A stretch of 52,474 nt of DNA from Candidatus Limnocylindria bacterium (GTDB lineage: Bacteria; Chloroflexota; Limnocylindria; QHBO01): the NCBI GenBank assembly GCA_041499395.1, contig JBGQKH010000003.1, forward strand, positions 1 through 52,474, read 5' to 3'. This document shows, piece after piece, positions 5,171 through 47,861 of the stretch; positions within the stretch are counted from its first letter, which is position 1, and the number at the start of each line of letters is the position of its first letter. Position numbers and translations under genes: made by a program. A model generated the notes under the pieces. That model saw nothing but the letters and a program-made list of their open reading frames with translations, was not told the origin of the DNA and did not search any database.

Positions 5171-6513
5171 CCGGCCTCCTCCTCGCCGAGGAGCATCCCA
5201 CGAACCGCGCCGACCAGATAGAGCGAGCCGGCCACCACGACCGGCTGATTGGCGCTGAATCGCTGCGCCGCGGCAATTGAGATTGCCTCCTCCGGCGTTG
5301 GCGCCGCGTGGGCTTGTCCCATGCCGATGCGGTGCCACCTGCGTAGGAGCTCCTCCGCCGGCAGCGCCCCCGGGTCGGCGATCCGGGTGAAAATAGGCCT
5401 CGGCTCGAGGGGAGCAAGGGCACGGAGCACGGCGCTGACGCGCTTGCCGCGGGTCGCCCCGAAGACGAGGGGGAATCGGTGCAGCCCGAGCTCGCCCAGC
5501 GAGGCGGCGAGGGCTCGCGCGCCCGCCGGGTTGTGTGCGCCGTCGAGCAGGATCCTGCCGAACCGAGACTCCTTGATGAGCTCCATGCGTCCGGGCCACG
5601 CGGCTCGGCCGAGCCCGCCCCGGATCGCTTCCTCCGTGAGGGTGATCGGGGCGCCGCGCCGCGCCGCGTCTTCCACGAGCGCGTCGAGGAGTGCCAGGGC
5701 GACCGCGGCATTCGCCGCCTGGTGGCTCCCCAGCAGCCCGACCCGTAGCGCTTTCAGCTCGCCGCGCGGCGTCGTCGCGTCCAGCACGAGCCCGTCCCAC
5801 CCGGAGTGACGGACCGATGCGGAATAGGGCTGTCCCGGGCCGGCGCGTCGCAGGGATGCTCCGACGACCTCGCACCGGTCCTGGATGGGAGCCAGGCCTC
5901 GCCCCCGCGCCCCCGTGGCGGCGAGGTTCCCGGCCTTGATGATCGCCGCCTTCTCGCTGCCGATCGAGGCGAGGCTGCTACCGAGCAGCCGCTCGTGGTC
6001 GTGCTGGACGTTCGTGATCGCCGCGACCCCGGCGTCGAGAACGTTGGTCGCGTCGAGCCGGCCGCCCAGGCCGACCTCCACCAGCGCCATGTCGATCTTG
6101 CTGGCGGCCAGCTCGACGAAGGCCGCGGCCGTCAGCGCCTCGAACTCGGTCGGCGGGCCGAGCCGGGCCGTCACGCGATCGATCGCGGGCATCACGGCCG
6201 CCAGCGCGGCGGTGAACCGCTCGCGGCTGATCGGTGCTCCGTCGATCGCGATCCGCTCGCGGTAGCTGATCAGGTGCGGCTTCGGCATGGTGCCGACCCG
6301 CAGCCCGGCCTCGCCCAGGACCGATCGGGCCATCGCCACGACGCTGCCCTTCCCGTTCGTGCCGCCGACCAGCGCCCCATGAAGGCGGCGCTCCGGATGG
6401 TCCAGCTCGGCAAGGAGCGCCTCGATGCGGGCGAGGCCCAGGCTCACCCCGAACCGGCCGCGGCCGCGCAGCGCGGCGACCACCGCGTCATAGTCGAGCT
6501 GGCTGGGGCTCAT
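5167..6513 (-). CDS. folC: Folylpolyglutamate synthase/dihydrofolate synthase
   Basis: GGTNGKGS P-loop, TEFE, EVGLGGRLDATNV, EKAAIIK, WPGRME, DGAHNPAG, GSLYLVG. Start taken as ATG 6513. Confidence 0.95.
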   Translation of the reverse strand: MSPSQLDYDAVVAALRGRGRFGVSLGLARIEALLAELDHPERRLHGALVGGTNGKGSVVAMARSVLGEAGLRVGTMPKPHLISYRERIAIDGAPISRERFTAALAAVMPAIDRVTARLGPPTEFEALTAAAFVELAASKIDMALVEVGLGGRLDATNVLDAGVAAITNVQHDHERLLGSSLASIGSEKAAIIKAGNLAATGARGRGLAPIQDRCEVVGASLRRAGPGQPYSASVRHSGWDGLVLDATTPRGELKALRVGLLGSHQAANAAVALALLDALVEDAARRGAPITLTEEAIRGGLGRAAWPGRMELIKESRFGRILLDGAHNPAGARALAASLGELGLHRFPLVFGATRGKRVSAVLRALAPLEPRPIFTRIADPGALPAEELLRRWHRIGMGQAHAAPTPEEAISIAAAQRFSANQPVVVAGSLYLVGAVRGMLLGEEEAG

Positions 6514-6544
6514 CGACGACGGAAGCCGATCGGTCCCGACCGGC

Positions 6545-7102
6545 TCAGGCTCCCTCGTCCTCGTAGAAGACGCAGTCATGGTACTGGCCGGTCATGCACA
6601 GGTCGCCGACATAGCCGGCGTCGAGGTGGACGCCGCCGCGCAGCTCGCATCGGTTCACGACCCCGTCGCGCTTCATGAGCATCCGGAGCACGCCCGGCGA
6701 GTCGGTGCCGACGCGACCCTTGGCCCCGGAGGTCAGGTAGAAGTGCGGGCACGAGTGGCGGCGCGGCTTCGAGTAGCCGAGCGGCATCCCCCGCCGTCCC
6801 ACGTGCACGGTGAGCGGCTCGGCGGAGCCGGCGAAACGCTTCTCGGCGATGGCGCAGCGGCCCGGCTCGCAGTCGATCTCGTTGTGGCAGCAGGCGCGCG
6901 CCGGTCCCACCCCGTCGACCGCCCAGAGCTCCCAGCAGGGGCGCCGCAGGATGAAGGCCGGACACCGATATCGGATCGTGAGCGAGCAGTTCTCGACCTC
7001 CCAGCACATCGTGCGGCGGTCGCCGGTGGGCCGCTCCGGGGCGAACGGGTCGGCCACCTGGCGCCGGTCCGGGCTGGTCCGGCGCTCGGTCTTGATGATC
7101 AC
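6545..7102 (-). CDS. Cys-rich hypothetical protein with a CW...CPA...CW module, probable metal-binding
   Basis: 185 aa with 12 Cys. Fills the gap between trxA and folC. TAGACT -10 box 6 nt upstream of the GTG. Confidence 0.75.
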   Translation of the reverse strand: MIIKTERRTSPDRRQVADPFAPERPTGDRRTMCWEVENCSLTIRYRCPAFILRRPCWELWAVDGVGPARACCHNEIDCEPGRCAIAEKRFAGSAEPLTVHVGRRGMPLGYSKPRRHSCPHFYLTSGAKGRVGTDSPGVLRMLMKRDGVVNRCELRGGVHLDAGYVGDLCMTGQYHDCVFYEDEGA

Positions 7103-7145
7103 CGGCGGAGTCTAGCGGCTGAGGGGTCCCGCGGACGCAATCGGG

Positions 7146-7472
7146 TCAGGCCAGGAACTCGCGCAGCCGATCCTCCATCGCCGCCTGCGGCATGTAGCCG
7201 ACGACCCGCGCCGCCTCGCGCCCGCCCTTGAAGACGACCATGGTCGGGATGCTGAAGATGCTGTAGCGCATCGCCAGCTGCTGGTTCTCGTCGGTGTTCA
7301 CCTTGGCGGTGGTGAGCTTGTCCGGGTGGGCCTCCCCGATCGCCTCGATCACCGGTGAGACGAGGCGGCATGGGCCGCACCAGGGAGCCCAGAAGTCGAC
7401 CAGCACCGGCTTCTTGGAGTTGAGGACCTCTGCCTCGAAGGTCGAGTCATCGACCGTGATCGGGGCCGTCAT
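7146..7472 (-). CDS. trxA: Thioredoxin
   Basis: VLVDFWAPWCGPC, cis-Pro motif SIPT, GGAGG SD, TGn-TACGAT extended -10 upstream. Confidence 0.97.
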   Translation of the reverse strand: MTAPITVDDSTFEAEVLNSKKPVLVDFWAPWCGPCRLVSPVIEAIGEAHPDKLTTAKVNTDENQQLAMRYSIFSIPTMVVFKGGREAARVVGYMPQAAMEDRLREFLA

Positions 7473-7552
7473 GTTCGTGCGTGACCTCCAGGTCGGGGTG
7501 AGCGGGCGGGCGGGGATCGTAGCACCGGCGAGCTCGCCCTACGAGCCGAGCG

Positions 7553-9172
7553 TTAGCAGGGGGCGCTCGGGCACGGCGTCGGAGTTGCAGGGACGGGTGT
7601 CGGCGTCGGCGACGGCGACGGGACCGGCGTCGGGGTCGGCCCGCTCGAGAGCACGATGTCGACCTGTTTCCCCTTGCCAACCTGCACGCCGGCGGTGGGG
7701 TTCGAGCGGATCACCTCGCCGGCCGGCTGGCCGGACGGCTCGCTCGTGACGGCGCCCAGCACGAGGCCGGCCGCGGTGAGGGTCGTGGTCGCTTCCTGCC
7801 GGGTCTGCCCGAGGAGCACGGGGACCGCCACCTGCTCCTGCCCGGAGCTGACGACGACCTGGATGGTGTCGCCGCTATGCACGCTGGTGCCGGCGGCCGG
7901 ATTTGTCGAAATCACCGTGTCGACCGCGACCGTGTCGCTCGGCTGGGTCTGCTCGACGAGGACGAGACCCCGAGCGTGCGCCTCGGCGCGGACGCCGGCG
8001 ATCGGGCTGCCGACCCAGTTCGGCAGGCTGATGCCGCCGGACGGCGTCGGGGTCGGGTTGTTGGGGCCAAGGCCGCCGAGCACGGACGCCACCAGGAAGC
8101 CGATCGTCGCGAGCAGGATCACCCCGAGGACGGCGAGGAGCCAGACCCACCAGGGCTGAGCATTGCGGCGGGGCGCCGGATAGGCCATCGAGCGGCGGGG
8201 AGGAGGTGGGTTGCCGGGGCCGCCCGGCGGCATGCCGGAGATGGCCGCCCGGTCCGACGGCAGCGTCACGCGGGGCGGGACGTAGACGGTCGGCTCGCCG
8301 GCCGGCGGGATCGCGGCCACGATGGGAGCCGCCGCGGCTCCGACGGCGTCCGGGTTGCGCTGCCAGACGCGGAGCGCCTCGGCGAAGGCACCGGCATCTG
8401 GGAAGCGCCTGGCGGGGTCACGCTCCAGGGCGCGCATCACGATGGCGGAGAGGCCGGGCGGGACCGGGCCGTGGACGGTCGGGGGGAGCGGGTCCTCGGT
8501 CAGGCGCTTGAGCGCCACGCCCGCCGCCGAGTCGCCCTCGAACGGGCGCCGGCCGGTCAGCATCTCGTACAGGACGATGCCCAGGGCGTACACGTCGGAC
8601 TGTCCTGTCACCTCGTCCCCGCGCGCCTGTTCCGGGCTGAAGTAGTGGACCGATCCGAGGGTCGTCCCCGTCACTGTCATCGACGCCTCGGCCACGGCCC
8701 GCGCGATGCCGAAGTCGGTCACCTTCACGTCGTGGTCGATCAGGATGTTCCCCGGCTTCACGTCCCGGTGGACGATCCCGCGCCGATGCGCCGCCTCGAG
8801 CGCCGATGCGACGCCGATCGCGATCCGCACCGCGTCGTCGACCTTCAGCGGGCCGTTCTTCTCGAGGATGGCCGCCAGGTCCTGGCCGTCGATCAGCTGC
8901 ATGACGATGAACTGGCCGCCGGTCTCGGCATCGGTCCCGTAGTCGTAGACCGAGACGATGTTCGGGTGGGAGAGCGAGCCCGCCGATCGGGCCTCCTGCT
9001 TGAAGCGGGCCGCGAAGCCGGGGTCGTTGCCGAACTGGGGGCGGAGCAGCTTGACGGCGACCTCGCGGTCGAGCTGCTCGTCCATGGCGCGCCACAGGGT
9101 GGCCATCCCGCCCTCGCCGAGCGGTGCGATGAGCCGATAGCGCCCGCCGATCAACCGGCCGATCATCTCCAC
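7553..9172 (-). CDS. pknB: PknB-like Ser/Thr protein kinase with TM and two PASTA domains
   Basis: GEGGMA, VAVK, HRDVKPGN, DFGIAR, YFSPEQ, then a TM and two PASTA-like repeats (VISTNPAAG, VIRSNPTAG), Pro/Thr-rich tail. Confidence 0.92.
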   Translation of the reverse strand: MEMIGRLIGGRYRLIAPLGEGGMATLWRAMDEQLDREVAVKLLRPQFGNDPGFAARFKQEARSAGSLSHPNIVSVYDYGTDAETGGQFIVMQLIDGQDLAAILEKNGPLKVDDAVRIAIGVASALEAAHRRGIVHRDVKPGNILIDHDVKVTDFGIARAVAEASMTVTGTTLGSVHYFSPEQARGDEVTGQSDVYALGIVLYEMLTGRRPFEGDSAAGVALKRLTEDPLPPTVHGPVPPGLSAIVMRALERDPARRFPDAGAFAEALRVWQRNPDAVGAAAAPIVAAIPPAGEPTVYVPPRVTLPSDRAAISGMPPGGPGNPPPPRRSMAYPAPRRNAQPWWVWLLAVLGVILLATIGFLVASVLGGLGPNNPTPTPSGGISLPNWVGSPIAGVRAEAHARGLVLVEQTQPSDTVAVDTVISTNPAAGTSVHSGDTIQVVVSSGQEQVAVPVLLGQTRQEATTTLTAAGLVLGAVTSEPSGQPAGEVIRSNPTAGVQVGKGKQVDIVLSSGPTPTPVPSPSPTPTPVPATPTPCPSAPC

Positions 9173-9178
9173 CGCGGG

Positions 9179-10051
9179 CTAGTCTCGCAGGTCGAGGCCG
9201 CGAACGAAGGCGCGCACCTCGTCGGCCAGGTCCGAGTCGAGCGACATCGCGATGTTTGCCTTCAGCCAGCCGAGGCGCGTCCCGGCGTCGTGACGCACCC
9301 CTTCGAACTGGTAGCCGAAGACCGGCTGCTCTGCCGAGAGCGCGCGGAGCGCGTCGGTGAGCTGTATCTCCCCGCCGGCGCCACGCTGGGTCGTCTCCAG
9401 CTTGTCGAAGATCTTCGGGCTGAGGATGTATCGGCCCAGGACGGCGAGGTCCGATGGCGCGTCCTCGACCGACGGCTTCTCGACCAGGTCGCCGATTTCC
9501 ACCAGCCGGCCCTCCTCGCGGCGCGGCGCGACGATGCCGTAGCGGCCCACGTCGTCGCGCGGCACGCGCTGGAGGGCGATCACCGAGCCGCGATGCGCCG
9601 CGTGCTGCTCGATCAGCTGCTGGGTCACCGGCTTGCCGCCCGGGTTGAGCATCACGTCGTCGGAGAGGAGCACGGCGAACGGCTCGTCGCCGACCAGCTC
9701 CTTGGCCATGAGCACCGCGTGCCCGAGCCCGAGCTGCTCCTTCTGGTGGACGAAGGCGATGGTGCCGATCTCCGAGATGCGCCGCACCGCCCGCAGCATC
9801 TCGATGTCGCCGCGCTCCTCGAGCCAGCGCTCGAGCGCCGGGTGCGAGTCGAAGTGCTCCTCGATCGTGCTCCGCCCACTGGCGATGACGATGATGATCT
9901 GCTCGATCCCCGAGGCGACTGCCTCCTCGACCGCGTACTGGATGATCGGCCGGTCGACCAGGGTGACCATCTCCTTGGGGATGGCCTTGGTCGCGGGCAG
10001 GAAGCGGGTTCCGAATCCGGCCGCCGGCAGGACGGCCTTTCTGACGCGCAC
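9179..10051 (-). CDS. galU: UTP--glucose-1-phosphate uridylyltransferase
   Basis: KAVLPAAGFGTRFLPATKAIPKEM, QLGLGHAVL, LVEKP, GEIQLTD. GTG start preceded by AGGAG. Confidence 0.95.
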   Translation of the reverse strand: MRVRKAVLPAAGFGTRFLPATKAIPKEMVTLVDRPIIQYAVEEAVASGIEQIIIVIASGRSTIEEHFDSHPALERWLEERGDIEMLRAVRRISEIGTIAFVHQKEQLGLGHAVLMAKELVGDEPFAVLLSDDVMLNPGGKPVTQQLIEQHAAHRGSVIALQRVPRDDVGRYGIVAPRREEGRLVEIGDLVEKPSVEDAPSDLAVLGRYILSPKIFDKLETTQRGAGGEIQLTDALRALSAEQPVFGYQFEGVRHDAGTRLGWLKANIAMSLDSDLADEVRAFVRGLDLRD

Positions 10052-37890: not shown

Positions 37891-38610
37891 ATGCCCAACG
37901 ACCGGCTCCCAACACCCGAACGTGTCCTGGTCGTGGCCGCGCACCCCGACGACATCGAGTTTGGCGCGGCCGGGACGGTCGCGCGCTGGGTCGGGGAGGG
38001 GGCCGAGGTGCGCTACCTGCTGCTGACCCGTGGCGACAAGGGGAGCGACAATCCGGCCGCCGATCCCGTGGCCCTGGCCTCGCTCCGTGAGGACGAGCAG
38101 CGGTCCGCCGCCGAAGAGATCGGCGTCACCTCGGTCGACTTCCTCGGCGAGCCCGACGGGCAGGTTGAGCCGAGCCTTCGACTCCGCGAACGCATCACGC
38201 ACGCCATCCGCGCCTTCCGCCCCGAGATCGTGATGAGCCACGACCCGACGGTCCTCTTCGTCAACAACGAGTGGGTGAACCACCCCGACCACCGCGCAGC
38301 GGGGACGGTGGTGGTCGACGCGGTCTTTCCCACCGCGCGCGACCCGCTCAACTTTCCCGAGCACATCGCCGCCGGCCTCGCCGCTTGGAAGGTCGCGGAG
38401 CTCTTCCTCTGGAGCACCAACGAGGCGAACCAGCTGGTCGATATCGGGGCGACGCTTGAACGCAAGATCGCTGCGCTGGCGCACCACGCCAGCCAGTTCC
38501 GCGACTTCCCGGAGACGGCACGCTGGGTCCGGCGCGGGGCAGAGGAGCTCGGGGAGCGAGCCGGCTACCCAGCCGCGGAGGGCTTCCGACGGGTGATGCT
38601 GGCCCGATGA
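37891..38610 (+). CDS. PIG-L/LmbE-family deacetylase
   Basis: AAHPDDIE, T.GDKG, R..EQ..AA, HPDHR, H.SQ. Confidence 0.92.
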   Translation: MPNDRLPTPERVLVVAAHPDDIEFGAAGTVARWVGEGAEVRYLLLTRGDKGSDNPAADPVALASLREDEQRSAAEEIGVTSVDFLGEPDGQVEPSLRLRERITHAIRAFRPEIVMSHDPTVLFVNNEWVNHPDHRAAGTVVVDAVFPTARDPLNFPEHIAAGLAAWKVAELFLWSTNEANQLVDIGATLERKIAALAHHASQFRDFPETARWVRRGAEELGERAGYPAAEGFRRVMLAR

Positions 38611-40583
38611 TGCTGCCGCGCGGACGGGCGCGCGGTCCTGCGCGAGCCACCGCCTGGCTGGTCGCGGTGGCGATGCTCGCCTCCTTCGCCTCGCCGGCCA
38701 TAGCGTCCAGCCCAAGCCCGAATCCCTCCGGCTCGGCTCCGGCGGTGCGCCCCGTCGCCCCTGCCGCGGCTGCCGCGGAGGCGGCGCGGATCTTCGTCGC
38801 GACCTGGCGGTCGCAGCAATACGCCCAGATGGCGCAGCTGGTCGCTCCGGCAGATCGCGCGCACAACAGCCCTGCGGCGATCGCCTCGCTGCTCCAGCAG
38901 TTCGACGATCTCGCCGGAGTCACCTGGATCGACGCGAACGTTGGCACGCCCATCCCCAGCTCGGCCGCGCCCGATGGCGACGGCATTGGGCCGCAGCCCG
39001 CCTTCGCGGTCCCGGTCAGCCTCTCGATCGAGACGAACCTGTTCGGCACCGTCGCGGTCTCCCGGACGCTCATGCTCACCGCGGGCTCCGACGACTGGAC
39101 CGTGCGCTGGCGCCCCTCGCTCCTCTTCCCGCAGCTCGGCGAGCAGGCCACCCTCGAGATCAAACGAAGCGAGCCAGCGCGAGGCCGCATCCTTGCTGCA
39201 GACGGAAAGGTCTTCGCCGAGACGCGTGCTGACGGGATGCGGGTCTACCCGCAGGAGTGGCTCGCCGGCCAGACGATCGGCTACGTCGCGCCGGTCACGA
39301 AGGGCGAGCTCGCCAGCCTTCCGCCGAGCGCCGACTACCTGGTCGGCGAGTCGCTCGGACGCTCGGGCCTCGAGCAGGGGGCCGAGCCGCTGCTGCGCGG
39401 CTCACCCGGGCTCAGCCTCGTCGGGAACCTCGCTGACGGGGAGATGGTCCCCCTCCTCGTCCGGCCGATGGTCCCCGGCGCCGATGTGACGACCACCCTC
39501 CGGCCGACCCTCCAGGCCACGGCCGAGGCCGCGCTCACCGGTCAGAGCGACGCCGGCACCGTCGTGCTCGACCCGAAGTCGGGCGACGTCTGGGCGCTGG
39601 CCTCCATGCCGCGTTTCGACCCGAACTCCATGACGATCGGCAAGACGCTCTCCGGCCAGCCCCTGGCCCGCGCGAAAGCGTCAGACGTGCTGAATCGGGC
39701 CGTGCTGGCAGCATACCCGGCGGGGTCGTCGTTCAAGCCATTCACCCTGATCGCCGCCTTCGAGACCGGGGTGGCCGCCGCTGCCACGAGGATGCCCTGC
39801 CTCGGCACCTGGACCTACGGTGGCTTCACGTACCACAACTACCGTGACCACTTCCTCGGCCCGACTGTCTCGCTGGCGCAGGCAATGGCATTCAGCTGCA
39901 ACACGACGTACATGCCGCTCTCGATCCGGGTCTGGGAGAAGGATCGGACGGCCCTGACCGATTTCGTCACCGCTTTCGGCTTTGGGCGATCCACCCGCAT
40001 CACCCATCTGACCGACGCGCCTGGCATCCTGCCCGATGCGCACTACTACGCCACAACCCCGCGCTCGGGGACGCGCTACTCGCCCTACAGTGCCGTGGAC
40101 CAGATCCAGCTCGCGATCGGACAGGGGAGGTTCGAGACCACCCCGCTACAGCTGGCGAACGCCTACGCCGCCTTCGCAAACGGCGGGACGCTCTGGAGGC
40201 CGCGGCTCGTCACCCAGGCGACGCTGCCGGACGGCACGATCCTCGAGCAGGACCAGCCGCTCCCTATGCGTCGGATCGACCTCAAGCCGGAGACACTCGA
40301 CTACCTCCGACAGTCGCTCCGCGCCGTGGTCTCCCTCCCGATCGGCACCGCGTATGTCGCCTTCTCAGGGTTCGGCCACGAGGTTGCGGGGAAGAGCGGC
40401 ACGGCCGAAACTGGCACGCCGTACCCCGACGCGTGGTTCCCCGCCTTCGCGCCTGTCGGCAGCGCGCAGATCGTGGTCGCCACCGTGCTGGTGCACGTGG
40501 TCATCGGGACCGGCGGGTCGGACACCGCCCCGCTCGTCCGTCGCGTGCTGGCGAAGTACTTCGCCAACCCCAACCTGCTTTGA
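38607..40583 (+). CDS. Class B penicillin-binding protein (NTF2-like N-terminus, dimerisation and transpeptidase domains)
   Basis: RGRI, G.SGLE, SxxK (GSSFK), SxN (SCN), KSG(T), IGQG. Confidence 0.9.
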   Translation: MMLPRGRARGPARATAWLVAVAMLASFASPAIASSPSPNPSGSAPAVRPVAPAAAAAEAARIFVATWRSQQYAQMAQLVAPADRAHNSPAAIASLLQQFDDLAGVTWIDANVGTPIPSSAAPDGDGIGPQPAFAVPVSLSIETNLFGTVAVSRTLMLTAGSDDWTVRWRPSLLFPQLGEQATLEIKRSEPARGRILAADGKVFAETRADGMRVYPQEWLAGQTIGYVAPVTKGELASLPPSADYLVGESLGRSGLEQGAEPLLRGSPGLSLVGNLADGEMVPLLVRPMVPGADVTTTLRPTLQATAEAALTGQSDAGTVVLDPKSGDVWALASMPRFDPNSMTIGKTLSGQPLARAKASDVLNRAVLAAYPAGSSFKPFTLIAAFETGVAAAATRMPCLGTWTYGGFTYHNYRDHFLGPTVSLAQAMAFSCNTTYMPLSIRVWEKDRTALTDFVTAFGFGRSTRITHLTDAPGILPDAHYYATTPRSGTRYSPYSAVDQIQLAIGQGRFETTPLQLANAYAAFANGGTLWRPRLVTQATLPDGTILEQDQPLPMRRIDLKPETLDYLRQSLRAVVSLPIGTAYVAFSGFGHEVAGKSGTAETGTPYPDAWFPAFAPVGSAQIVVATVLVHVVIGTGGSDTAPLVRRVLAKYFANPNLL

Positions 40584-40662
40584 CACCGGCTCTCCGCGAC
40601 GGATACCATCGCGGCGCCGCTGACTCGCTTCGGCAACTCGTGGTGGAACCCGCTCTGCGACG

Positions 40663-42642
40663 ATGCCAGTGATCTCCGCAAACGCCATCCCGCTCAGGTT
40701 CCAGACCGCCGAAGTCGGCGTCGACTGGCTCCAGTGCAACATCGAGTGCCAGGAAGGCTGCCCGGTCAATACCAACTGCCGGGGCTACCTGATGCTCGCC
40801 GCTGAGGGGCGCTTCGAAGAGGGCTACATCCTGGCCCGCGACCCGAACCCGGTCGCCGCCATCTGCGGCTACGTGTGCAGCGCCCCGTGCGAGAAGGCCT
40901 GCCGCCGCGCCGATATCGACAAGCCGCTCTCGATCCGCGCCATGAAGCGCTTCCTGGTCGACTGGCACTACGGCAACAACATGCCCGACAACGTCGTCGT
41001 TGCGCCGCCGACGGGCAAGAGCGTCGGCGTCATCGGCGCCGGCCCGGCGGGACTCACCGTCGCCAAGGAGCTCGCCTCCTACGGGCACCAGGTCCACGTC
41101 TACGAGGCGCTCCCGTCGGGTGGTGGCACGACCCTGATCGGCGTGCCGGCGTTCCGGCTGCCGCGCGACGTGATCGAGCTCGACGTGAACTGGGTCGCCA
41201 AGCACGGGGTCGAGTTCCACTACAACGTCGAGGTCGGGCGCGACATCACCCTCGACCAGCTGCGCGAGCGGCATGACGCGGTGGTCGTCTCGGCCGGCTG
41301 CATGTACCCGGTCGCCATGAACATCCCCGGCGAGGAGCTCGATGGCGTGATCTACGGCGTCGACTTCCTGAAGCGCGCCAACCTGGGCGAGGAGCAGTGG
41401 GTCGGCGACCACGCCGTGATCGTGGGTGGCGGCTACACCGCGATGGACTCGGCGCGCACCGCGCTGCGCATCGGCGCCAAGACCTCGACGATCGTCTACC
41501 GTCGCGGCCCCGAGGAGATGGTGGTCGACGAGGAGGAGCAGCACGAGACCCGCTTCGAGGGGGTCCGCTTCGAGTTCTTCAGCTCGCCGGTCGAGGTGGT
41601 GAGCGACAGCAAGGGGCACGTCTCGGGGATCACCTTCCAGCGGACGCGCCTCGGCCCGCCGGACGCCAGCGGCCGTCGCAGCGCCGAGCCGATCCCCGGC
41701 AGCGAGTTCACGCTCGCCTGCGACATGGTCATCCCGTGCACCAGCCAGGCCTCCGACAACAACGTCCTGGGCGAGTACGGCGCCAAGCTCAACCGCCACC
41801 TTGGTGTGACCGATACCCGCGAGTTCGTGCCAGGCGGCTCGATCTCGTCATGGCGCACGGCGCCGCTCAACGGCACGACCCCGCTCGGGCCCGATGGCAA
41901 GAAGTACAACGCCCTCAAGTTCGACCTGGCGCGCGGCTACGTCGTCGCCCAGGCGGACACGTTCCAGACCAACGTCGAGGGGATCTTCGCCTGCGGCGAC
42001 TTCGTGACCGGCCCGGCCACGATCATCGAGGCGGCCGGGCGTGGCCGCCGGACGGCGCGTGCGGTCGATCGCTGGCTCGGCGGCGTGCGCGGTGCCGAGC
42101 TGGAAGAGCTCCCGGTCATCAACCGCGCCGTGATCACCCAGGCCCTCGAGCACGATATGCCGGACAAGTACGAGGCGATCGAGCGCCAGCACATCCCGAT
42201 GGCTCCGCCGGAGCTGCGTCGCGACTTCACGAGCCTGGTGGAGGTCGGCTACGACACCCGCTCCGCGATCACCGAGGGACAGCGCTGCCTCCAGTGCAAC
42301 CACAACATCAACATCGACGGGCCGCGCTGTATCCTGTGCGGGCTCTGCGCCGACGTCTGCCCCGAGGGCGTGATCTACATGATCGACAAGGCGCAGGTCG
42401 GCGGCGACGACCCGGAGATCGACCTCTTCCAGACGTGGCCGCGCGGGATTGCCATGATCATCGACGAGGAGCGCTGCATCCGCTGCAACCTCTGCGTCGA
42501 GCGGTGTCCGACCAACTGCATCACGATGGATCGGCTCGAGCTCGAGCGGATCACGCCTGACGGGAAGGTGCTCTTGGAGAGCTACAAGGACAACGTGCTG
42601 GGACAGATCGGCCAGCAGGCCGGCGTGGCGGTCCAGCGATGA
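40663..42642 (+). CDS. NAD(P)-dependent flavo-iron-sulfur oxidoreductase, GltD/NfnB/DsrL-like, with C-terminal 2x[4Fe-4S] ferredoxin domain
   Basis: CQEGCP and CGYVCSAPCEKACRR, FAD motif GAGPAG, GGGYTAMD...YRR, FACGD, RCLQC, CILCGLCADVCP, CIRCNLCVERCP. Confidence 0.92.
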   Translation: MPVISANAIPLRFQTAEVGVDWLQCNIECQEGCPVNTNCRGYLMLAAEGRFEEGYILARDPNPVAAICGYVCSAPCEKACRRADIDKPLSIRAMKRFLVDWHYGNNMPDNVVVAPPTGKSVGVIGAGPAGLTVAKELASYGHQVHVYEALPSGGGTTLIGVPAFRLPRDVIELDVNWVAKHGVEFHYNVEVGRDITLDQLRERHDAVVVSAGCMYPVAMNIPGEELDGVIYGVDFLKRANLGEEQWVGDHAVIVGGGYTAMDSARTALRIGAKTSTIVYRRGPEEMVVDEEEQHETRFEGVRFEFFSSPVEVVSDSKGHVSGITFQRTRLGPPDASGRRSAEPIPGSEFTLACDMVIPCTSQASDNNVLGEYGAKLNRHLGVTDTREFVPGGSISSWRTAPLNGTTPLGPDGKKYNALKFDLARGYVVAQADTFQTNVEGIFACGDFVTGPATIIEAAGRGRRTARAVDRWLGGVRGAELEELPVINRAVITQALEHDMPDKYEAIERQHIPMAPPELRRDFTSLVEVGYDTRSAITEGQRCLQCNHNINIDGPRCILCGLCADVCPEGVIYMIDKAQVGGDDPEIDLFQTWPRGIAMIIDEERCIRCNLCVERCPTNCITMDRLELERITPDGKVLLESYKDNVLGQIGQQAGVAVQR

Positions 42643-43373
42643 CCTTCCCCGGTCCGGGCGACCTGATGCGGGTCGTCAAGGAGTCGGCGCTGTGGCGAAG
42701 CCTCTTCCGCCAGCCCTACCCGACCACCAGCCGCACCCGCGCGCTGGCGGTGATGAACAACGTCTTCCTGCACCTGCACCCGGTCCGCGTCAAGAAGCAC
42801 GCCGTCCGCTACACCTACACGTTCTGCCTTGGCGGGGTCAGCTTCTTCCTCTTCCTGGTGCTCACCGTGACCGGCGTCTACCTCATGTTCTTCTACGTCC
42901 CGTCGGTCACGCGCGCGTATCAGGACATCCTCTCGATCGAGAACTCGGTCGCCTTCGGATCGTTCGTGCGGAACATGCACCGCTGGGGCGCGCACCTCAT
43001 GGTGCTCACCGTCTTCCTGCACATGATCCGGGTCTTCTACCACGGCGCCTACAAGCCGCCGCGCGAGTTCAACTGGGCGATCGGGGTGATCCTCCTCTTC
43101 TGCACCCTCTGGCTCAGCTTCACCGGCTACCTCCTGCCATGGGACCAGATCGCGTTCTGGGCGATCACCGTCGGCAGCCAGATGGCGACCTACGCGCCGC
43201 TGCTCAGCAAGGAGTCGAGCTTCATCCTGCTGGGCGGCGTCGAGGTGGGGCAGGGGACCCTGATCCGCTTCTACGTGATGCACGTGATCGCCTTCCCGCT
43301 GATCACCGCCATCCTGATGGTCGTCCACTTCTGGAGGATCCGGAAGGACGGCGGGATCTCCGGCCCGGTCTGA
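42639..43373 (+). CDS. Cytochrome b6-type subunit of a Rieske/cytb complex
   Basis: Four heme His (MHRW...LHM and MHV...VHF, 14 residues between the second pair), TGYLLPWDQ..FWA, heme ci Cys in FCLGG, C-terminal GISGP. Confidence 0.93.
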   Translation: MTFPGPGDLMRVVKESALWRSLFRQPYPTTSRTRALAVMNNVFLHLHPVRVKKHAVRYTYTFCLGGVSFFLFLVLTVTGVYLMFFYVPSVTRAYQDILSIENSVAFGSFVRNMHRWGAHLMVLTVFLHMIRVFYHGAYKPPREFNWAIGVILLFCTLWLSFTGYLLPWDQIAFWAITVGSQMATYAPLLSKESSFILLGGVEVGQGTLIRFYVMHVIAFPLITAILMVVHFWRIRKDGGISGPV

Positions 43374-43377
43374 GCCG

Positions 43378-43992
43378 ATGACGATCGAGAAGCGCCCGAA
43401 CGCCACCGCGGACAAGAACGCGCCGACGCAGGCGCCGCGGGTCCCTGCCGTCGAGCGCGGGGGCGGCCCCAAGCTCCCCGGCCCTCCCGGCGTTCCGGGC
43501 ACGGAGCGCTTCCGCCTCCTCGCCTACGTCAAGCAGGAGTCGATGGTGCGCGTCGACAAGCGCCCGGACGAGACGGTCCTCACCTGGCCGCACCTGCTCC
43601 GCGCCGAGTTCCTGATGGCGACGCTGATCACCGTCCTGCTGGTGGTGGCCTCGACCTTCATCTCCGCGCCGCTCGAGCAGATGGCCAACGCCGGGGTCAC
43701 GCCGCACGTGGCGAAGGCGCCGTGGTACTTCCTCGGCCTCCAGGAGCTGCTCAGCTACTTCAACGCGACCGTCGGTGGCGTGCTGCTGCCGACCCTCTAC
43801 CTCGTCGGCCTGGCGATCATCCCGTATGTTGACCGCTCGCCGTACAAGGCCGCGCGCGACCGGAAGACGATCTGGGTCTTCTTCCTGGCGCTCATGCTCG
43901 GCGGACTGCTGATCACCCTCATCGGCTCATTCTTCCGCGGCCCCGGCTGGAACTGGGTCTGGCCGTGGCAGGGGATCTACTTCACCCTATGA
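43378..43992 (+). CDS. Subunit IV (split cytochrome b C-terminal part) of a Rieske/cytb complex
   Basis: WPHLL, APLE..AN...TP, KAPWYFLGLQELL, IPYVDR. Confidence 0.9.
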   Translation: MTIEKRPNATADKNAPTQAPRVPAVERGGGPKLPGPPGVPGTERFRLLAYVKQESMVRVDKRPDETVLTWPHLLRAEFLMATLITVLLVVASTFISAPLEQMANAGVTPHVAKAPWYFLGLQELLSYFNATVGGVLLPTLYLVGLAIIPYVDRSPYKAARDRKTIWVFFLALMLGGLLITLIGSFFRGPGWNWVWPWQGIYFTL

Positions 43993-44603
43993 GCCATCTG
44001 CCGACCTACGGCGAGGTGCCCGGCCGCCCCGTCGGCGAGATGAGCCGGCGCTCGTTCATGCGCCGCGTCTTCTGGGCCGGCACGGGGCTGCTCACCATCG
44101 AGTTCCTGGCGGGGACCGTCAACTTCCTGTGGCCCAACGTGCGGACCGGGCTGGGCGGCAAGTTCACCCTTGGCAAGGCCTCCGACATCGCGGGGACGCA
44201 GGCGAGCTGGACGCAGGGTCAGCCGTACGCATTCGGCAAGGCGCGCGTCTTCTTCATCAACGTGCCGGCCGCCAAGGCGCTCGTCAACGGCGGCGGCGGG
44301 ACCGTCGCGGACCCCGGGGCGGACGTCCTGGCCCTCTACCGCAAGTGTCCGCACCTGGGCTGCAACATCCCGCCGCTCTGCGAGAAGAGCCACTGGTTCG
44401 AGTGCCTCTGCCATGGCAGCAAGTACAACATCATCGGCGAGAAGCGCGCCGGCCCGGCACCTCGCGGCATGGACCGCTTCACGGTGACCGTCACTGCCGG
44501 CACCTACGTGATCGACACCGGCGTCATCGAGGCCGGACCGCCGATCGGCACCGCGACCTTCGACCCGCGCAATACCGCCGACATTCCCCACTGCGCCGCC
44601 TGA
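43989..44603 (+). CDS. Rieske [2Fe-2S] protein with Tat signal anchor
   Basis: SRRSFM twin-arginine motif, CPHLGC, CLCHGSKY, GPAPR. ATGA overlap. Confidence 0.93.
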   Translation: MSHLPTYGEVPGRPVGEMSRRSFMRRVFWAGTGLLTIEFLAGTVNFLWPNVRTGLGGKFTLGKASDIAGTQASWTQGQPYAFGKARVFFINVPAAKALVNGGGGTVADPGADVLALYRKCPHLGCNIPPLCEKSHWFECLCHGSKYNIIGEKRAGPAPRGMDRFTVTVTAGTYVIDTGVIEAGPPIGTATFDPRNTADIPHCAA

Positions 44604-44606
44604 CCG

Positions 44607-45458
44607 ATGCGCATCAAGACGCTGGCCGTCGTCCTGATCAGCGCCATGTCGCTCTTCACCGCCTTCTACTGGATCACCGACCCCGCCCGCCGCGAGGCGG
44701 CCTACCAGACCCAGATCAAGGAGCTGCTCGCCTACGGGGCGGAGGTCTTCATGCCGGCCGACCCGCAGTTCCCCGACCACGCCGGCTGCGCCTCGTGCCA
44801 CGGCATCGACGGGACCGGCGGGCAGGTCGGGACCACCGGGCGCCTCGCCCCGAACCTGCACTCCAAGAGCATCTACGAGAAGCTGCGGGCGCAGAACGGC
44901 GGATCATTCACCGACATCCGCAAGCCGGGTGACCCGCCCGACTACGTCAACCTGGTGGTCCGCTTCGGCGGCGTGGTCGTGTCGGGCGACGTCAACTCGC
45001 CGATGCCGGCCTGGAGCACGGAGGTGGGCGGGCCGCTGACCATCAACCAGATTGACGCGGTCACGGCGCTGGTCGAGACCTGGGCCCTGGAGGCCGGCAA
45101 GCAGCCCGATGTGCAGGTCCCGAACTCGGTCGACGCCGGCGCGAAGGTCTACGTCGACTCCGGCTGCGGCGGCTGCCACGGGCCGCAGCTCGCCGGCGTG
45201 GCCGGCACCTTCCCGAACCTGACGAACATCGGCAACGCCCCGGTGACCGACCTGCCGACCCCCATCGCCCACCTGGACAAGCTCCAGGCGGACTACGGCG
45301 CCGACCCGCGCGCGTTCCTCGAGAAGTGGATCCGCGACTCGTCGGTCAACTACAACGACGGCACCGCCACCGGCATGCCGGTCCATCCCGAGGGGAAGAT
45401 CAGCGCATCGGCCCTGCAGGCGCTCATCACCTTCCTGCTGAGCCACAAGGGCACCTGA
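44607..45458 (+). CDS. Membrane-anchored diheme cytochrome c
   Basis: CASCH and CGGCH, each followed by an MP distal-ligand motif. N-terminal TM. Confidence 0.9.
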   Translation: MRIKTLAVVLISAMSLFTAFYWITDPARREAAYQTQIKELLAYGAEVFMPADPQFPDHAGCASCHGIDGTGGQVGTTGRLAPNLHSKSIYEKLRAQNGGSFTDIRKPGDPPDYVNLVVRFGGVVVSGDVNSPMPAWSTEVGGPLTINQIDAVTALVETWALEAGKQPDVQVPNSVDAGAKVYVDSGCGGCHGPQLAGVAGTFPNLTNIGNAPVTDLPTPIAHLDKLQADYGADPRAFLEKWIRDSSVNYNDGTATGMPVHPEGKISASALQALITFLLSHKGT

Positions 45459-45462
45459 GCCG

Positions 45463-46044
45463 ATGTCAAACGCCTACACCGTCCCGCCGCGCCGCGACCT
45501 CGTCTCGCGGGTGGCGCGCGAGATCGACGACTTCATGAGCTGGATGCTCTACGGCTCGGAGACGTGGCTGGTCGCGCTGCTCAAAGGCGTGCCGCTGCTG
45601 CTCTTCCTCTACTTCGTGCTCGGCTACATCCCGAACTACGCCAACACCATCGTCACCCTCTACCTGGGCTTCAGCAAGGACGTGGGCTTCCTGGTCGCCG
45701 TGGTGCTCGTCGGCGGGCCGACCTTCACCCTGGTCCTGATCCTCGCCCTCTGGACCCAGGCGGCCCGCGGCCGGCGCGGCTTCGCCTGGTCGCTCATCCG
45801 CTTCCTCGACTTCCTCCAGTACACCGCGCTGGTACTGGGGATCATCCCGTTCATGCTCTTCAACGTCGCCGGCGGCAGCCTCATCCCGCCGCTCTTCCCG
45901 CTCCAGGCGCTGGCGCTCGGCGCCATCGCGGCGGCCGGCGGAGCGACCGGGCTCGCCTACCTGTGGTTCGAGTACCGCCGCATCAGCCGTCGCGAGGCGG
46001 AGGCTGCGGCCGCCGCCAGCGCCGCCTGGGGATCCCGCGGCTAG
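45463..46044 (+). CDS. Integral membrane protein (about 4 TM) at the end of the Rieske/cytb operon
   Basis: 4 nt after the cytochrome c stop, hydrophobic helices, strong codon bias. Confidence 0.8.
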   Translation: MSNAYTVPPRRDLVSRVAREIDDFMSWMLYGSETWLVALLKGVPLLLFLYFVLGYIPNYANTIVTLYLGFSKDVGFLVAVVLVGGPTFTLVLILALWTQAARGRRGFAWSLIRFLDFLQYTALVLGIIPFMLFNVAGGSLIPPLFPLQALALGAIAAAGGATGLAYLWFEYRRISRREAEAAAAASAAWGSRG

Positions 46045-46057
46045 CCGGTTCACGGCC

Positions 46058-46396
46058 ATCTCCCGGCCGCTCGCCGTCCACCTGGCCTGGTCCTTCGGCA
46101 TCCTTGCCGCGGCCGGCAGCGTCATCGCCTGGGAGCTGAGCGCCAGCTGCCCGCCGGGTGGACCGCTCGCCTTCGGCGACTGCACGGGCGTCCGGCCTTT
46201 CGCGATCGGCGTGCTCGGCTTCGCGGCGCTCCTCTACGTCGGCGGCCTCTCCGCCGTGCTCGCCTGGGTGAGCGGCCTGCGGCGGCGCGGCGTGGCGGAC
46301 GGCACGGCGGCTCGTGACTGGTATCTGCTCGCCGCCGCGGTGGGGCTGCCGGTGGCGCCACTCCTCTCGTTCACCCTCCTCTCGGCGCTCCGCTAG
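46058..46396 (+). CDS. Small membrane protein, start uncertain
   Basis: Track gives 46211..46396, but the frame is open and TM-like upstream (ISRPLAVHLAWSFGILAAAGSVIAW...SCPPGGPLAFGDC). There is no canonical start in that extension. Confidence 0.4.
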   Translation: MSRPLAVHLAWSFGILAAAGSVIAWELSASCPPGGPLAFGDCTGVRPFAIGVLGFAALLYVGGLSAVLAWVSGLRRRGVADGTAARDWYLLAAAVGLPVAPLLSFTLLSALR

Positions 46397-46406
46397 CATG
46401 GGACGC

Positions 46407-47861
46407 ATGACCTCAGCCAGCGCCGATGACCTCCTCGCCCGACTCGATGGCACGGCCCGCATCGAGGGCTCCCGCCTGGTCGTGACCGATCCCCCGCGCT
46501 TCCGGCGCGACGTGATCGAGCGGCTCGTCAACGACGCCGTCTTCAACCCCGAGGCCGAGCTGCGCGACGCGGCCCGCTGGCTGATCTGGAGCGCCTCACA
46601 GGTGCTCGGCTGCGGATCGGCGAGCATCCACGAGCTGTACATGGCGCGCGGTCGCGGCGAGTTCTCTCCCACCCGCTTCACCGTCCCTGCCATCAACTCA
46701 CGGGCGGTCACCTACCTCACCGCGCGCCAGGCCTTCGCCGCCGCGCTGGAGCGGGACGCGGGGGCAGTCATCTTCGAGATCGCGAAGTCCGAGATGGCCT
46801 ACACCGACCAGCGACCCGCGGAATACACGGCGGCGATCTTGGCCGCCGCCATCCGGTCGGAGTGGGCCGGCCCGGTCTTCCTGCAGGGCGACCATTTCCA
46901 GTTCAACGCCAGCAAGTGGAAGGCGGATTCGGGCGCCGAGCTCGACGCGCTCAAGCAGCTCACCAGCGAGGCGGTGGCGGCCGGCTTCCTGAACATCGAC
47001 ATCGACAGCAGCACGCTCGTCGACCTCTCCCAGCCGACCGCCGCCGACGAGCAGCGGGTCAACTGCGCCAACTCGGTCGAGCTGACGGGGCTGATCCGGG
47101 CTATCGAGCCGGACGGCGTGACGGTGAGCATCGGCGGAGAGATCGGGGAGGTGGGCAAGGCCAACTCGACCGAGGAGGAGCTGCGCGCCTACCTGGACGG
47201 CTATTTCGCCCCCCTGCACGGCACCGGGCTCCCGGGGCTGAGCAAGGTGAGCATCCAGACTGGCACGAGCCACGGCGGCGTCGTCCTGCCCGATGGCAGC
47301 GTGGCGCGCGTCAAGATCGACTTCGACACGATGCAGCGGCTCTCGACCGTCGCGCGAGACGAGTACGGCCTGGCCGGCGCCGTGCAGCACGGGGCGAGCA
47401 CCCTGCCCGAGGAAGCCTTCCACCACTTCCCGACCAACGGCACCGCCGAGATCCACCTCGCGACCGGCTTCCAGAACATCCTGTACGACGACGGCGGCCT
47501 GCCGGCCGACCTTCACGCCGAGATGATGGCCTGGTGCGTCGGCAACTGCGCCGACGAGCGCAAGCCGGACGAGACCGAGGAGCAGTTCCTCTACAAGACC
47601 CGCAAAAAGGCGATCGGGCCGTTCAAGAAGGCGCTCTGGACGCTCCCCGCCGAAGCCGAGGCGGAGATCGGTGCCAACCTGCGCAACAAGTTCGGGCTCC
47701 TCTTCGACAAGCTGGGGATCGCCGGCACCCGCTCGCTCGTGGACCGATACGTGACGATCCCGGACCTGCCGCGCCCCCTGCCGGTGGCGCTCGGCGGTGG
47801 CGAGCCGCAAGCCGTGACGGCCCACGCATCGGCCTTCGAGGACGACGGGTCGGGGGAGTAG
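46407..47861 (+). CDS. Class II fructose-bisphosphate aldolase family protein
   Basis: FTVPAIN, QGDH, IDIDSS, GEIGEVG, GTSHGG, VQHGAS. Start at ATG 46407, 7 nt after TAGCAT. Confidence 0.88.
   Translation: MTSASADDLLARLDGTARIEGSRLVVTDPPRFRRDVIERLVNDAVFNPEAELRDAARWLIWSASQVLGCGSASIHELYMARGRGEFSPTRFTVPAINSRAVTYLTARQAFAAALERDAGAVIFEIAKSEMAYTDQRPAEYTAAILAAAIRSEWAGPVFLQGDHFQFNASKWKADSGAELDALKQLTSEAVAAGFLNIDIDSSTLVDLSQPTAADEQRVNCANSVELTGLIRAIEPDGVTVSIGGEIGEVGKANSTEEELRAYLDGYFAPLHGTGLPGLSKVSIQTGTSHGGVVLPDGSVARVKIDFDTMQRLSTVARDEYGLAGAVQHGASTLPEEAFHHFPTNGTAEIHLATGFQNILYDDGGLPADLHAEMMAWCVGNCADERKPDETEEQFLYKTRKKAIGPFKKALWTLPAEAEAEIGANLRNKFGLLFDKLGIAGTRSLVDRYVTIPDLPRPLPVALGGGEPQAVTAHASAFEDDGSGE

Follow-up and report, generated by a model that had tools for sequence, protein, structure and literature searches.

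We describe a six-gene operon on a contig of Candidatus Limnocylindria bacterium (Chloroflexota; contig JBGQKH010000003.1, assembly GCA_041499395.1); the whole contig, 52,474 nt in length, is the stretch analyzed here and is hereafter called the window. Judging from its gene content and motifs, the operon appears to encode a b6c-type Rieske/cytochrome b complex of the APWY clade, within cytochrome b subfamily G of Dibrova, together with an iron–sulfur (FeS) flavoprotein. The pairing of such a flavoprotein with Rieske/cytochrome b is already published (Kartal, Dibrova, Kao & Hunte, Hauser), and the operon is a further case of a known, biochemically uncharacterized complex; the feature is real and strongly conserved. 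The complex also appears to be the only complex-III-type enzyme of the organism. The reading that we favor, with middling confidence, is that it would act as a quinol:cytochrome c oxidoreductase in which quinol-driven reduction of nicotinamide adenine dinucleotide phosphate (NADP+) runs alongside the normal Q cycle.

The window has a G+C content of 67-74% and is part of a 1.86-Mb metagenome-assembled genome (MAG) that is 79% complete. The operon, at positions 40663-46044, and a possible promoter comprise the following features (TM, transmembrane):

40580..40609, + strand: sigma-70-like promoter match TTGACA-18-TACCAT, a 10/12 consensus match only, inside the 79-nt gap upstream of the flavoprotein gene
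40663..42642, + strand: NADP(H)-type FeS flavoprotein, predicted cytoplasmic, 659 aa (Pfam, NCBIfam, motifs, AlphaFold2 model)
42639..43373, + strand: cytochrome b6, 244 aa, four-helix type (PF00033, E 1.1e-43)
43378..43992, + strand: subunit IV, 204 aa, three TM segments (PF00032, E 7e-10; hydropathy scan)
43989..44603, + strand: Rieske [2Fe-2S] protein, 204 aa (PF00355)
44607..45458, + strand: membrane-anchored diheme cytochrome c, 283 aa (PF00034, two stretches)
45463..46044, + strand: 4-TM membrane protein, 193 aa (no Pfam or NCBIfam match)

The initial annotation, made from the sequence alone, had described a tight operon with ATGA overlaps or gaps of 3-4 nt, and the open reading frames (ORFs) and junction sequences bear this out. 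The six closely packed ORFs include an ATGA overlap between the flavoprotein and cytochrome b6 genes (42639-42642) and another between the subunit IV and Rieske genes (43989-43992), with gaps of 4 nt between the cytochrome b6 and subunit IV genes, 3 nt between the Rieske and cytochrome c genes and 4 nt between the cytochrome c and 4-TM genes. The gene set proposed there (cytochrome b6, subunit IV, a Rieske protein of the twin-arginine translocation (Tat) type, a diheme cytochrome c and a 4-TM protein, besides the flavoprotein) was likewise recovered in full, all six products being identified by Pfam, motifs and hydropathy. Its view of the first gene product as a GltD/DsrL-like flavoprotein with two extra [4Fe-4S] motifs, without a signal peptide and with the NADP(H)-associated pattern GGG.TA.D...YRR, also stands; a separate GltB or NfnA partner, which it had named as counter-evidence, is absent from the operon.

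In the flavoprotein, Pfam recognizes Fer4_20 (residues 23-105), Pyr_redox_2 (120-374) and a Fer4_7 dicluster (555-619), so that an N-terminal two-cluster domain is followed by flavin adenine dinucleotide (FAD)- and NAD(P)-binding Rossmann domains, a linker and a C-terminal 2x[4Fe-4S] ferredoxin domain. Its motifs are GAGPAG at residue 125, GGGYTAMD at 255, YRR at 279-281 and two copies of CxxCxxCxxxCP, at 556 and 605. In Thermotoga NfnB, YRR is reported to hold the 2'-phosphate of NADPH, and the same motif marks the NADP(H)-specific DsrL-2 (PMC7596348); because residues 279-281 match this phosphate site, the flavoprotein probably prefers NADP(H). A hydropathy scan, with no signal-peptide predictor applied, revealed neither an N-terminal hydrophobic segment nor a TM segment.

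The protein scores below every NCBIfam cut-off, the best being PRK12771 (407 bits against 516), and with 321 against 472 for TIGR01316 and 259 against 483 for TIGR01318 it lies outside the NfnAB and GltD families. The AlphaFold2 model, built with 46 sequences, has a predicted local distance difference test score of 84.3 and a predicted template modeling score of 0.86, and is less confident at residues 1-8, in an insertion at 372-404 and in the tail at 642-659. Its top Foldseek matches are the NfnABC and StnABC large subunits (E ~1e-50, 705-725 aligned columns), followed by NfnB, and the sequence matches in the PDB are 9n5u_A, 9bov_A, 8oh5_C and 4ylf_B. Its sequence relatives include 9bov/9bp5 (NfnABC) and 5t5i (FwdF), two entries that Hauser et al. 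(PMC12954380) also report for the anammox flavoprotein subunit. The best 120 homologs are 84-100% identical, and those that are named come from Chloroflexota or Candidatus Limnocylindria MAGs, as do the related public loci.

In a survey of ORFs and Pfam domains, the operon genes included no NfnA (PyrK-like), GltB, HydB/C-like or DsrAB partner. A separate pair of NfnA-like and NfnB-like genes lies elsewhere in the genome, on contig C100, where the NfnA-like gene adjoins a different paralog, and a search for GltB in this incomplete (79%) genome gave nothing convincing (best match, 25.9 bits). Another paralog was observed outside the window, on contig C21 (L010:2756-6514), where a nuo operon (NuoD, NuoH ... 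NuoJ/K/L/M) includes a NuoF-like gene (Complex1_51K) together with a fusion protein of 793 aa, in which a GltD/NfnB-like NADPH flavoprotein module is combined with a NuoG-type 2Fe-2S domain and a C-terminal dicluster ferredoxin. This fusion, similar to the large subunits of NfnABC and StnABC, could serve complex I as an NADPH-linked input module.

The membrane core is of the b6 type. Cytochrome b6 matches Chlamydomonas b6 (1q90_B, E 1.5e-47), with Cys63 of FCLGG aligning with the heme-ci cysteine region, and scores 294.4 against the ExtP model NF040969 (cut-off 290). Its heme-ligand histidines (H114, H128, H215 and H230) are invariant in 21/21 aligned relatives and C63 is at least 90% conserved, so that the four histidines and the CxGG cysteine of b6-type heme-ci proteins are all present. 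An n-side N-terminal extension is conserved as well, and its His45 is invariant in the same 21. In subunit IV, the Qo motif APWY lies at residues 114-117 and is shared by most aligned orthologs, with or without a linked flavoprotein. The same protein begins with a proline- and glycine-rich extension (residues 1-41, window 43378-43500) that aligns only inside the class: in tblastn searches, flavoprotein-less orthologs start at residues 24-71, whereas several loci of the class align from residue 1. This extension could be a disordered tail on the n-side.

For the Rieske gene, ATG 43989 is the most likely start (an alternative GTG at 43965 opens the longest ORF), and its product carries the twin-arginine motif SRRSFMRR and the boxes CPHLGC and CLCHGSKY. 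Among solved structures, 9rk4_A is its closest relative (E 1.7e-9), and the Ser and Tyr of CHGSKY align in the two; according to Hauser et al. (PMC12954380), 9rk4 is the anammox Rieske protein Kuste4569, with a potential of +303 mV. Cytochrome c has heme-binding motifs at residues 61 (CASCH) and 187 (CGGCH) and, in the hydropathy scan, a hydrophobic segment near the N-terminus (3-24). Of the 41 genomes of the class, 14 have the 4-TM gene, all of them from family f1 (13/13 plus the genome of the window); in 13 of these 14 it lies on the contig and strand of cytochrome b6, ~2.1-2.8 kb downstream, and in G097 on another contig. The gene is an accessory one, confined to the family to which the window belongs.

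The linkage of the flavoprotein and cytochrome b genes is conserved throughout the class, as the initial annotation implied. Our phylum sample consisted of 301 Chloroflexota genomes, 185 of which have a cytochrome b6 relative (E<=1e-20). A full flavoprotein ortholog (E<=1e-120) is present in 27, all of the window's class: 16 from family f1 (the window's genome included), 9/15 from f2 and 2/2 from f3. Cytochrome b6 lies directly downstream in 26 of the 27, the pair of G124 being located at contig ends, and the six f2 genomes without the flavoprotein likewise lack cytochrome b6. In a separate sample of 41 genomes of the class, which adds families f69 and f70, the flavoprotein was found in 35, with cytochrome b6 directly downstream in 32; of the exceptions, G124 and G314 are split by contig ends and G306 has no cytochrome b6 match at E<=1e-60. 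With an eight-sequence alignment of the flavoprotein family, we additionally retrieved 80 public loci, 60 of Limnocylindria type and 20 others. Cytochrome b6 follows the flavoprotein by 36-93 nt in 54 of the 60 Limnocylindria-type loci, and five of the remaining contigs stop <=105 nt past the flavoprotein gene. The adjacency is kept even where flavoprotein identity between families falls to 42-53%.

Beyond Limnocylindria, 11 of the 20 other loci have cytochrome b6 and/or subunit IV beside the flavoprotein. Six of these are planctomycete loci (Brocadia, three; Scalindua/Scalinduaceae, two; one Planctomycetota MAG), with the order Rieske-b6-Flavo-IV throughout. The gene order of the window recurs in a Proteobacteria MAG and a Syntrophaceae MAG, and the remaining linked loci come from two 'Chloroflexia' MAGs and an Armatimonadetes MAG. 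Five Thermomicrobiales loci, Chloroflexota L102 and L105, and one MAG each of Nitrospinae and Desulfobacteraceae, nine loci in all, show no cytochrome b6, although three of the nine are too short to judge. A further linked arrangement was observed in family f12 (locus L124, G270:C2:39000-53000, positions 5660-9816), where a 656-aa flavoprotein, 31% identical, lies directly upstream of a 533-aa cytochrome b in which b6 and subunit IV are fused, and of a small Rieske-like ORF.

The anammox comparison was made with Brocadia and Scalindua loci, not with Kuenenia itself. The flavoproteins of the Brocadia, Scalindua and Planctomycetota loci are 34-36% identical to that of the window over residues ~10-630, and their cytochromes b6 are 51-57% identical. 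In the flavoprotein phylogeny, a single clade of 37 rows unites the window's and the anammox flavoproteins (Shimodaira-Hasegawa-like approximate likelihood ratio test (SH-aLRT) support, 98) and leaves out both paralogs of the same genome, the NfnB-like one on C100 and the NuoG-fused one on C21; the phylogenetic comparison with anammox and NfnB that had been called for thus places the flavoprotein with the former. The flavoprotein and cytochrome b6 trees are not clearly congruent (deep supports, 87-94), and gain, loss and transfer are not separable.

Such operons had been presented as known from anammox Planctomycetes. The homologous gene is indeed there, and two Kuenenia complexes carry NAD(P) oxidoreductases, for which bifurcation has been proposed and high Rieske potentials are given in Hauser et al. 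2025 (PMC12954380). The scope was too narrow, occurrence outside anammox bacteria being already in print (PMC5600118, PMC4122944). Dibrova 2017 (PMC5600118) refers to such oxidoreductase genes near short cytochrome b genes 'in many other cases', and the account of Kao & Hunte 2014 (PMC4122944) spreads the APWY clade across delta-Proteobacteria, Chloroflexi, Nitrospirales, Planctomycetes and others, with no member characterized as of that account. A Nitrospina b6-like operon with an octaheme cytochrome c was described by Lücker 2013, in a passage that does not mention the flavoprotein. A literature search for Limnocylindria together with cytochrome b or complex III returned one unrelated paper; the supplementary trees of comparative papers may list the lineage.

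We further examined how the flavoprotein is distributed where it is not linked to the operon. Eighteen cytochrome b6 operons from other Chloroflexota classes (cytochrome b6 44-68% identical) have no flavoprotein gene in the DNA examined, which at L025 reaches only 0.6 kb upstream. With the last 280 residues of the flavoprotein as the query, 91/301 genomes of the phylum sample gave matches, and outside the class 41 genomes match at E<=1e-29. The six unlinked copies inspected are full length (~605-612 aa from the best start), 38-41% identical and monocistronic, with varied neighbors. Among the 268 non-class genomes, the flavoprotein is present in 38 and absent in 34 of those with a close cytochrome b6 (E<=1e-80), and present in three and absent in 193 of those without; of the three genomes with the flavoprotein only, one has a truncated cytochrome b6 match and two are only 76% complete. 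These counts include G038, G227, G272, G173 and G145, which are flagged as unpublished. In the cytochrome b6 phylogeny, the nearest relatives of Limnocylindria are five rows from families f8, f15, f23, f27 and f45, which form a joint 13-row clade with them (SH-aLRT, 96); 36/38 sampled genomes of these five families have an unlinked flavoprotein. The distribution suggests that the partnership of flavoprotein and cytochrome b6 may extend beyond linked operons.

Weaker C-terminal matches (1e-21 to 1e-28), mostly from families f7 and f17 and in frames of mostly ~750-900 aa, were not counted as members of the family; one of them, L126, was inspected and proved to be a 737-aa paralog, 29% identical and on a very long branch. 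The stand-alone members in Thermomicrobiales (L106:6812-8905, L107 and L109-L111) are ~697 aa long, and that of L106, the sole one scanned, has an N-terminal rubredoxin-like domain (RUBY_RBDX) and an IscA/HesB-like gene nearby.

As to the respiratory setting, the cytochrome b6 of the operon is the only PF00033 match in two congeners, G058 (99% complete) and G022 (98%). NrfD, the marker of alternative complex III, was found in 0/6 genomes searched, and A-type COX1 in 6/6. Because this cytochrome b is the sole one in G058 and G022, and NrfD was not found where A-type COX1 is present, the complex of the operon must serve as the respiratory complex III of an aerobe. The genome of the window has one other cytochrome b, of 383 aa, outside the window on contig C23 (L012:3892-7756), on which no Rieske gene was found; its gene is placed divergently beside those of a very distant heme-copper oxidase subunit I (COX1, 78 bits) and a monoheme cytochrome c. 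This type of cytochrome b occurs only in some relatives (G009, G034 and G160).

The limits of the operon are clear because it is preceded by a gene for a penicillin-binding transpeptidase and followed by a class-II-aldolase-like gene. The former (window 38607-40583) encodes a class-B penicillin-binding protein with MecA_N, dimerization and transpeptidase domains, the latter (window 46314-47861) a 515-aa protein with a weak match to class-II fructose-bisphosphate aldolase, and both are apparently unrelated to the operon. The promoter match listed above is the sole sigma-70-like site in a scan of 40300-46600, for which shuffled sequences gave an expectation of 0.3. The flavoprotein/cytochrome b6 junction is spanned by contigs of three RNA libraries from three studies, 88-99% alike, which weakly support expression of the operon; these contigs are short, come from relatives and might derive from DNA, and they say nothing on a single transcript or on the level of expression. 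Low-depth stretches of the operon in the RNA data were left without interpretation.

The interpretation in the initial annotation, which wired the low-potential hemes to cytoplasmic NAD(P)(H), is partly supported: its genomic predictions hold, and the wiring and the direction of electron flow are inferred. Our preference for quinol-driven reduction of NADP+ rests on the Ser and Tyr in the Rieske box, on APWY as the Qo motif and on the precedent in anammox bacteria. The flavoprotein would be an extra cytoplasmic subunit docked on the n-side of the cytochrome b6/subunit IV dimer, where four [4Fe-4S] clusters could link FAD and NADP(H) to hemes bH and ci and perhaps to an extra heme held by His45. 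Upon oxidation of quinol at the Qo site, one electron would pass via the Ser/Tyr-type Rieske cluster and the diheme cytochrome c to the oxidase, and the other, via bL and bH, either to Qi, as in a standard Q cycle, or along the FeS chain to NADP+. The direction from quinol to NADP+ is the proposal made for anammox, and the link may be reversible. For the anammox complexes, AlphaFold3 models show an extra heme b held by His43/His62 of the two cytochrome b monomers (PMC12954380).

Several observations weigh against this reading. The anammox precedent rests, in the account of Hauser et al. (PMC12954380), on Rieske potentials and AlphaFold3 models, with no member of the kind assayed. None of His45/His47, 'FRH', the heme-ci Cys, APWY or the Rieske Ser/Tyr separates linked from unlinked or flavoprotein-less orthologs: the flavoprotein-less ones equally often carry His45, the heme-ci Cys (Gly in a few instances), APWY and the Rieske box CxCHGS.Y. 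Since they share every 'special' feature, the membrane core holds nothing specific to the flavoprotein, and the correspondence of His45 to anammox His43 (Kuste4571) may or may not hold. The co-occurrence of flavoprotein and cytochrome b6 is suggestive, not statistical proof, because the genomes are related and confounded with an aerobic lifestyle, aerobes being over-represented. PntB transhydrogenase was found in 5/5 genomes and the genome has a nuo operon with NuoF-containing complex I genes; therefore, the supply of NADPH does not require the route through the operon. Moreover, as the sole complex III, the complex must also sustain ordinary respiration.

Electrons could instead flow in the opposite direction, from NADPH through FAD and the FeS chain to heme ci/bH, with reduction of quinone at Qi, an input likened to the ferredoxin/ferredoxin:NADP+ reductase (FNR) route proposed for cyclic flow through b6f, or to Mitchell's 'donor d'. 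The flavoprotein module is the NADPH-oxidizing half of GltD and of dihydropyrimidine dehydrogenase, YRR in DsrL-2 goes with NADPH as the donor (PMC7596348), the heme-ci cysteine is conserved, and Dibrova 2017 (PMC5600118) recalls FNR co-purifying with b6f; furthermore, flow from NADPH to quinone is downhill and makes special potentials unnecessary. However, such an input would be wasteful where complex I exists, as Hauser et al. (PMC12954380) point out, and the host has complex I genes, while the Ser and Tyr of the Rieske box go with a high potential, which suits a very low-potential bL better than a simple input does. We consider this direction somewhat unlikely. It is also conceivable that the flavoprotein is soluble and only co-transcribed, as an NADPH:ferredoxin or NADPH:acceptor oxidoreductase of the DsrL/Nfn type that does not bind the complex. 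It has no TM segment, linked and unlinked forms are intermixed on the flavoprotein tree, and the family also includes monocistronic members with varied neighbors in Thermomicrobiales, a Nitrospinae MAG and five or more Chloroflexota families. At L065, a Limnocylindrales MAG, there is no cytochrome b6 in the 6.9 kb downstream of the flavoprotein; the stand-alone members and L065 thus make a soluble life of the flavoprotein possible. (At this locus, L065:1174-5355, the place of cytochrome b6 after the flavoprotein, itself 51% identical, is taken by a second paralog of 32% identity.) Nevertheless, a soluble enzyme is improbable, given that the ATGA overlap implies translational coupling with cytochrome b6, that the adjacency persists at 42-53% flavoprotein identity, that anammox loci place the flavoprotein gene within the operon, between cytochrome b6 and subunit IV, that cytochrome b6 and the flavoprotein are lost together, that 38/41 non-class genomes with an unlinked flavoprotein also have a close cytochrome b6, and that Kuenenia complexes with both proteins are expressed (Dibrova 2017, PMC5600118, citing de Almeida 2016).

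The flavoprotein might also act as a safety valve that drains an over-reduced low-potential chain into NADP+, or as a sensor that reports the NADPH/NADP+ ratio, in either case with a minor flux. Such a role would suit a complex that is the only complex III in an aerobe already equipped with PntB and complex I, and it would be compatible with the lack of the flavoprotein in 34 of the 72 non-class genomes with a close cytochrome b6, a lack that also counts against quinol-driven NADP+ reduction. A four-cluster wire with a flavin would be costly for a sensor, however; we hold this role to be very unlikely, although sequence alone cannot tell it from quinol-driven NADP+ reduction. The latter can also be carried further: the sole complex III would be permanently fitted with an NADP(H) module, Qo electrons would exit as NADPH and re-enter via transhydrogenase and complex I (an 'extended Q cycle'), and His45 would mark, across the APWY clade, an extra inter-monomer heme that serves as a docking site and electron port, used by relatives with an unlinked, detachable flavoprotein. 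This extension is speculative and, in our estimate, quite unlikely to hold as a whole.

The question whether a Rieske/cytochrome b complex can push quinol electrons up to NAD(P)+ has so far been raised mainly for anammox bacteria, which are hard to grow and have very elaborate complexes. The Limnocylindria complex is a stripped-down form, with a diheme cytochrome c, a three-helix subunit IV and no hydroxylamine oxidoreductase (HAO) partner, and its hosts are abundant soil and freshwater aerobes that seem to have no other complex III, all of which makes it a simpler target for expression, purification and assay. If quinol-driven NADP+ reduction holds true, textbook accounts of complex III and of the NADPH supply of aerobes need an addition.

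Among known systems, the complexes of anammox bacteria (Kuenenia Kuste4569-4574 and Kustd1480-1485; Kartal 2011/2013, Hauser 2025) share with the operon a split cytochrome b6 with the heme-ci Cys, an APWY subunit IV, a Ser(/Tyr)-type Rieske protein and, in the operon, a homologous GltD/NfnB-like flavoprotein with two-cluster domains at the N- and C-terminus. They differ in gene order (Rieske-b6-Flavo-IV, compared with Flavo-b6-IV-Rieske-c in the window), in subunit IV (at least 265 aa and, as described in PMC12954380, five helices, compared with 204 aa and three TM segments) and in cytochrome c, which is hexa- or octaheme in anammox and diheme here, the two CxxCH motifs setting it apart from multiheme proteins. 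The anammox complexes may also have an HAO-like partner, whereas the operon of the window includes no HAO-like gene, and, in contrast to anammox bacteria, the host is aerobic, has an A-type oxidase and apparently possesses a single complex III. With the APWY clade as delineated by Kao & Hunte 2014 (PMC4122944), the operon shares the Qo motif APWY and a short cytochrome b with CxGG, features that place it in that clade. For cytochrome b subfamily G (Dibrova 2013/2017, PMC5600118), which includes the Geobacter ExtP type, co-occurring large NAD(P)-binding FeS proteins have been noted in print. We do not class the operon as an Ext system because subunit IV, at 61.3 bits, misses the ExtQ cut-off of 150; the window was not searched for the remaining ext-operon genes.

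Cytochrome b6f and the Firmicute b6c complex share with it the four-helix b6, the heme-ci cysteine, a separate subunit IV and a Tat-type Rieske protein, but they have PEWY or PDWY where the window has APWY. Compared with b6f, the n-side N-terminus of cytochrome b6 is ~27 residues longer and contains the invariant His45, a diheme cytochrome c takes the place of cytochrome f, and a dedicated flavoprotein gene is added. For DsrL, domain order and YRR fit the published description, and the context of the operon is respiratory; no dsrAB search of the genome was made. More generally, the flavoprotein shares its Fer4_20, FAD and NADP(H) domains with YRR with NfnB, the large subunits of NfnABC and StnABC, GltD and DsrL, and its C-terminal ferredoxin domain with DsrL and the A subunits of NfnABC and StnABC.

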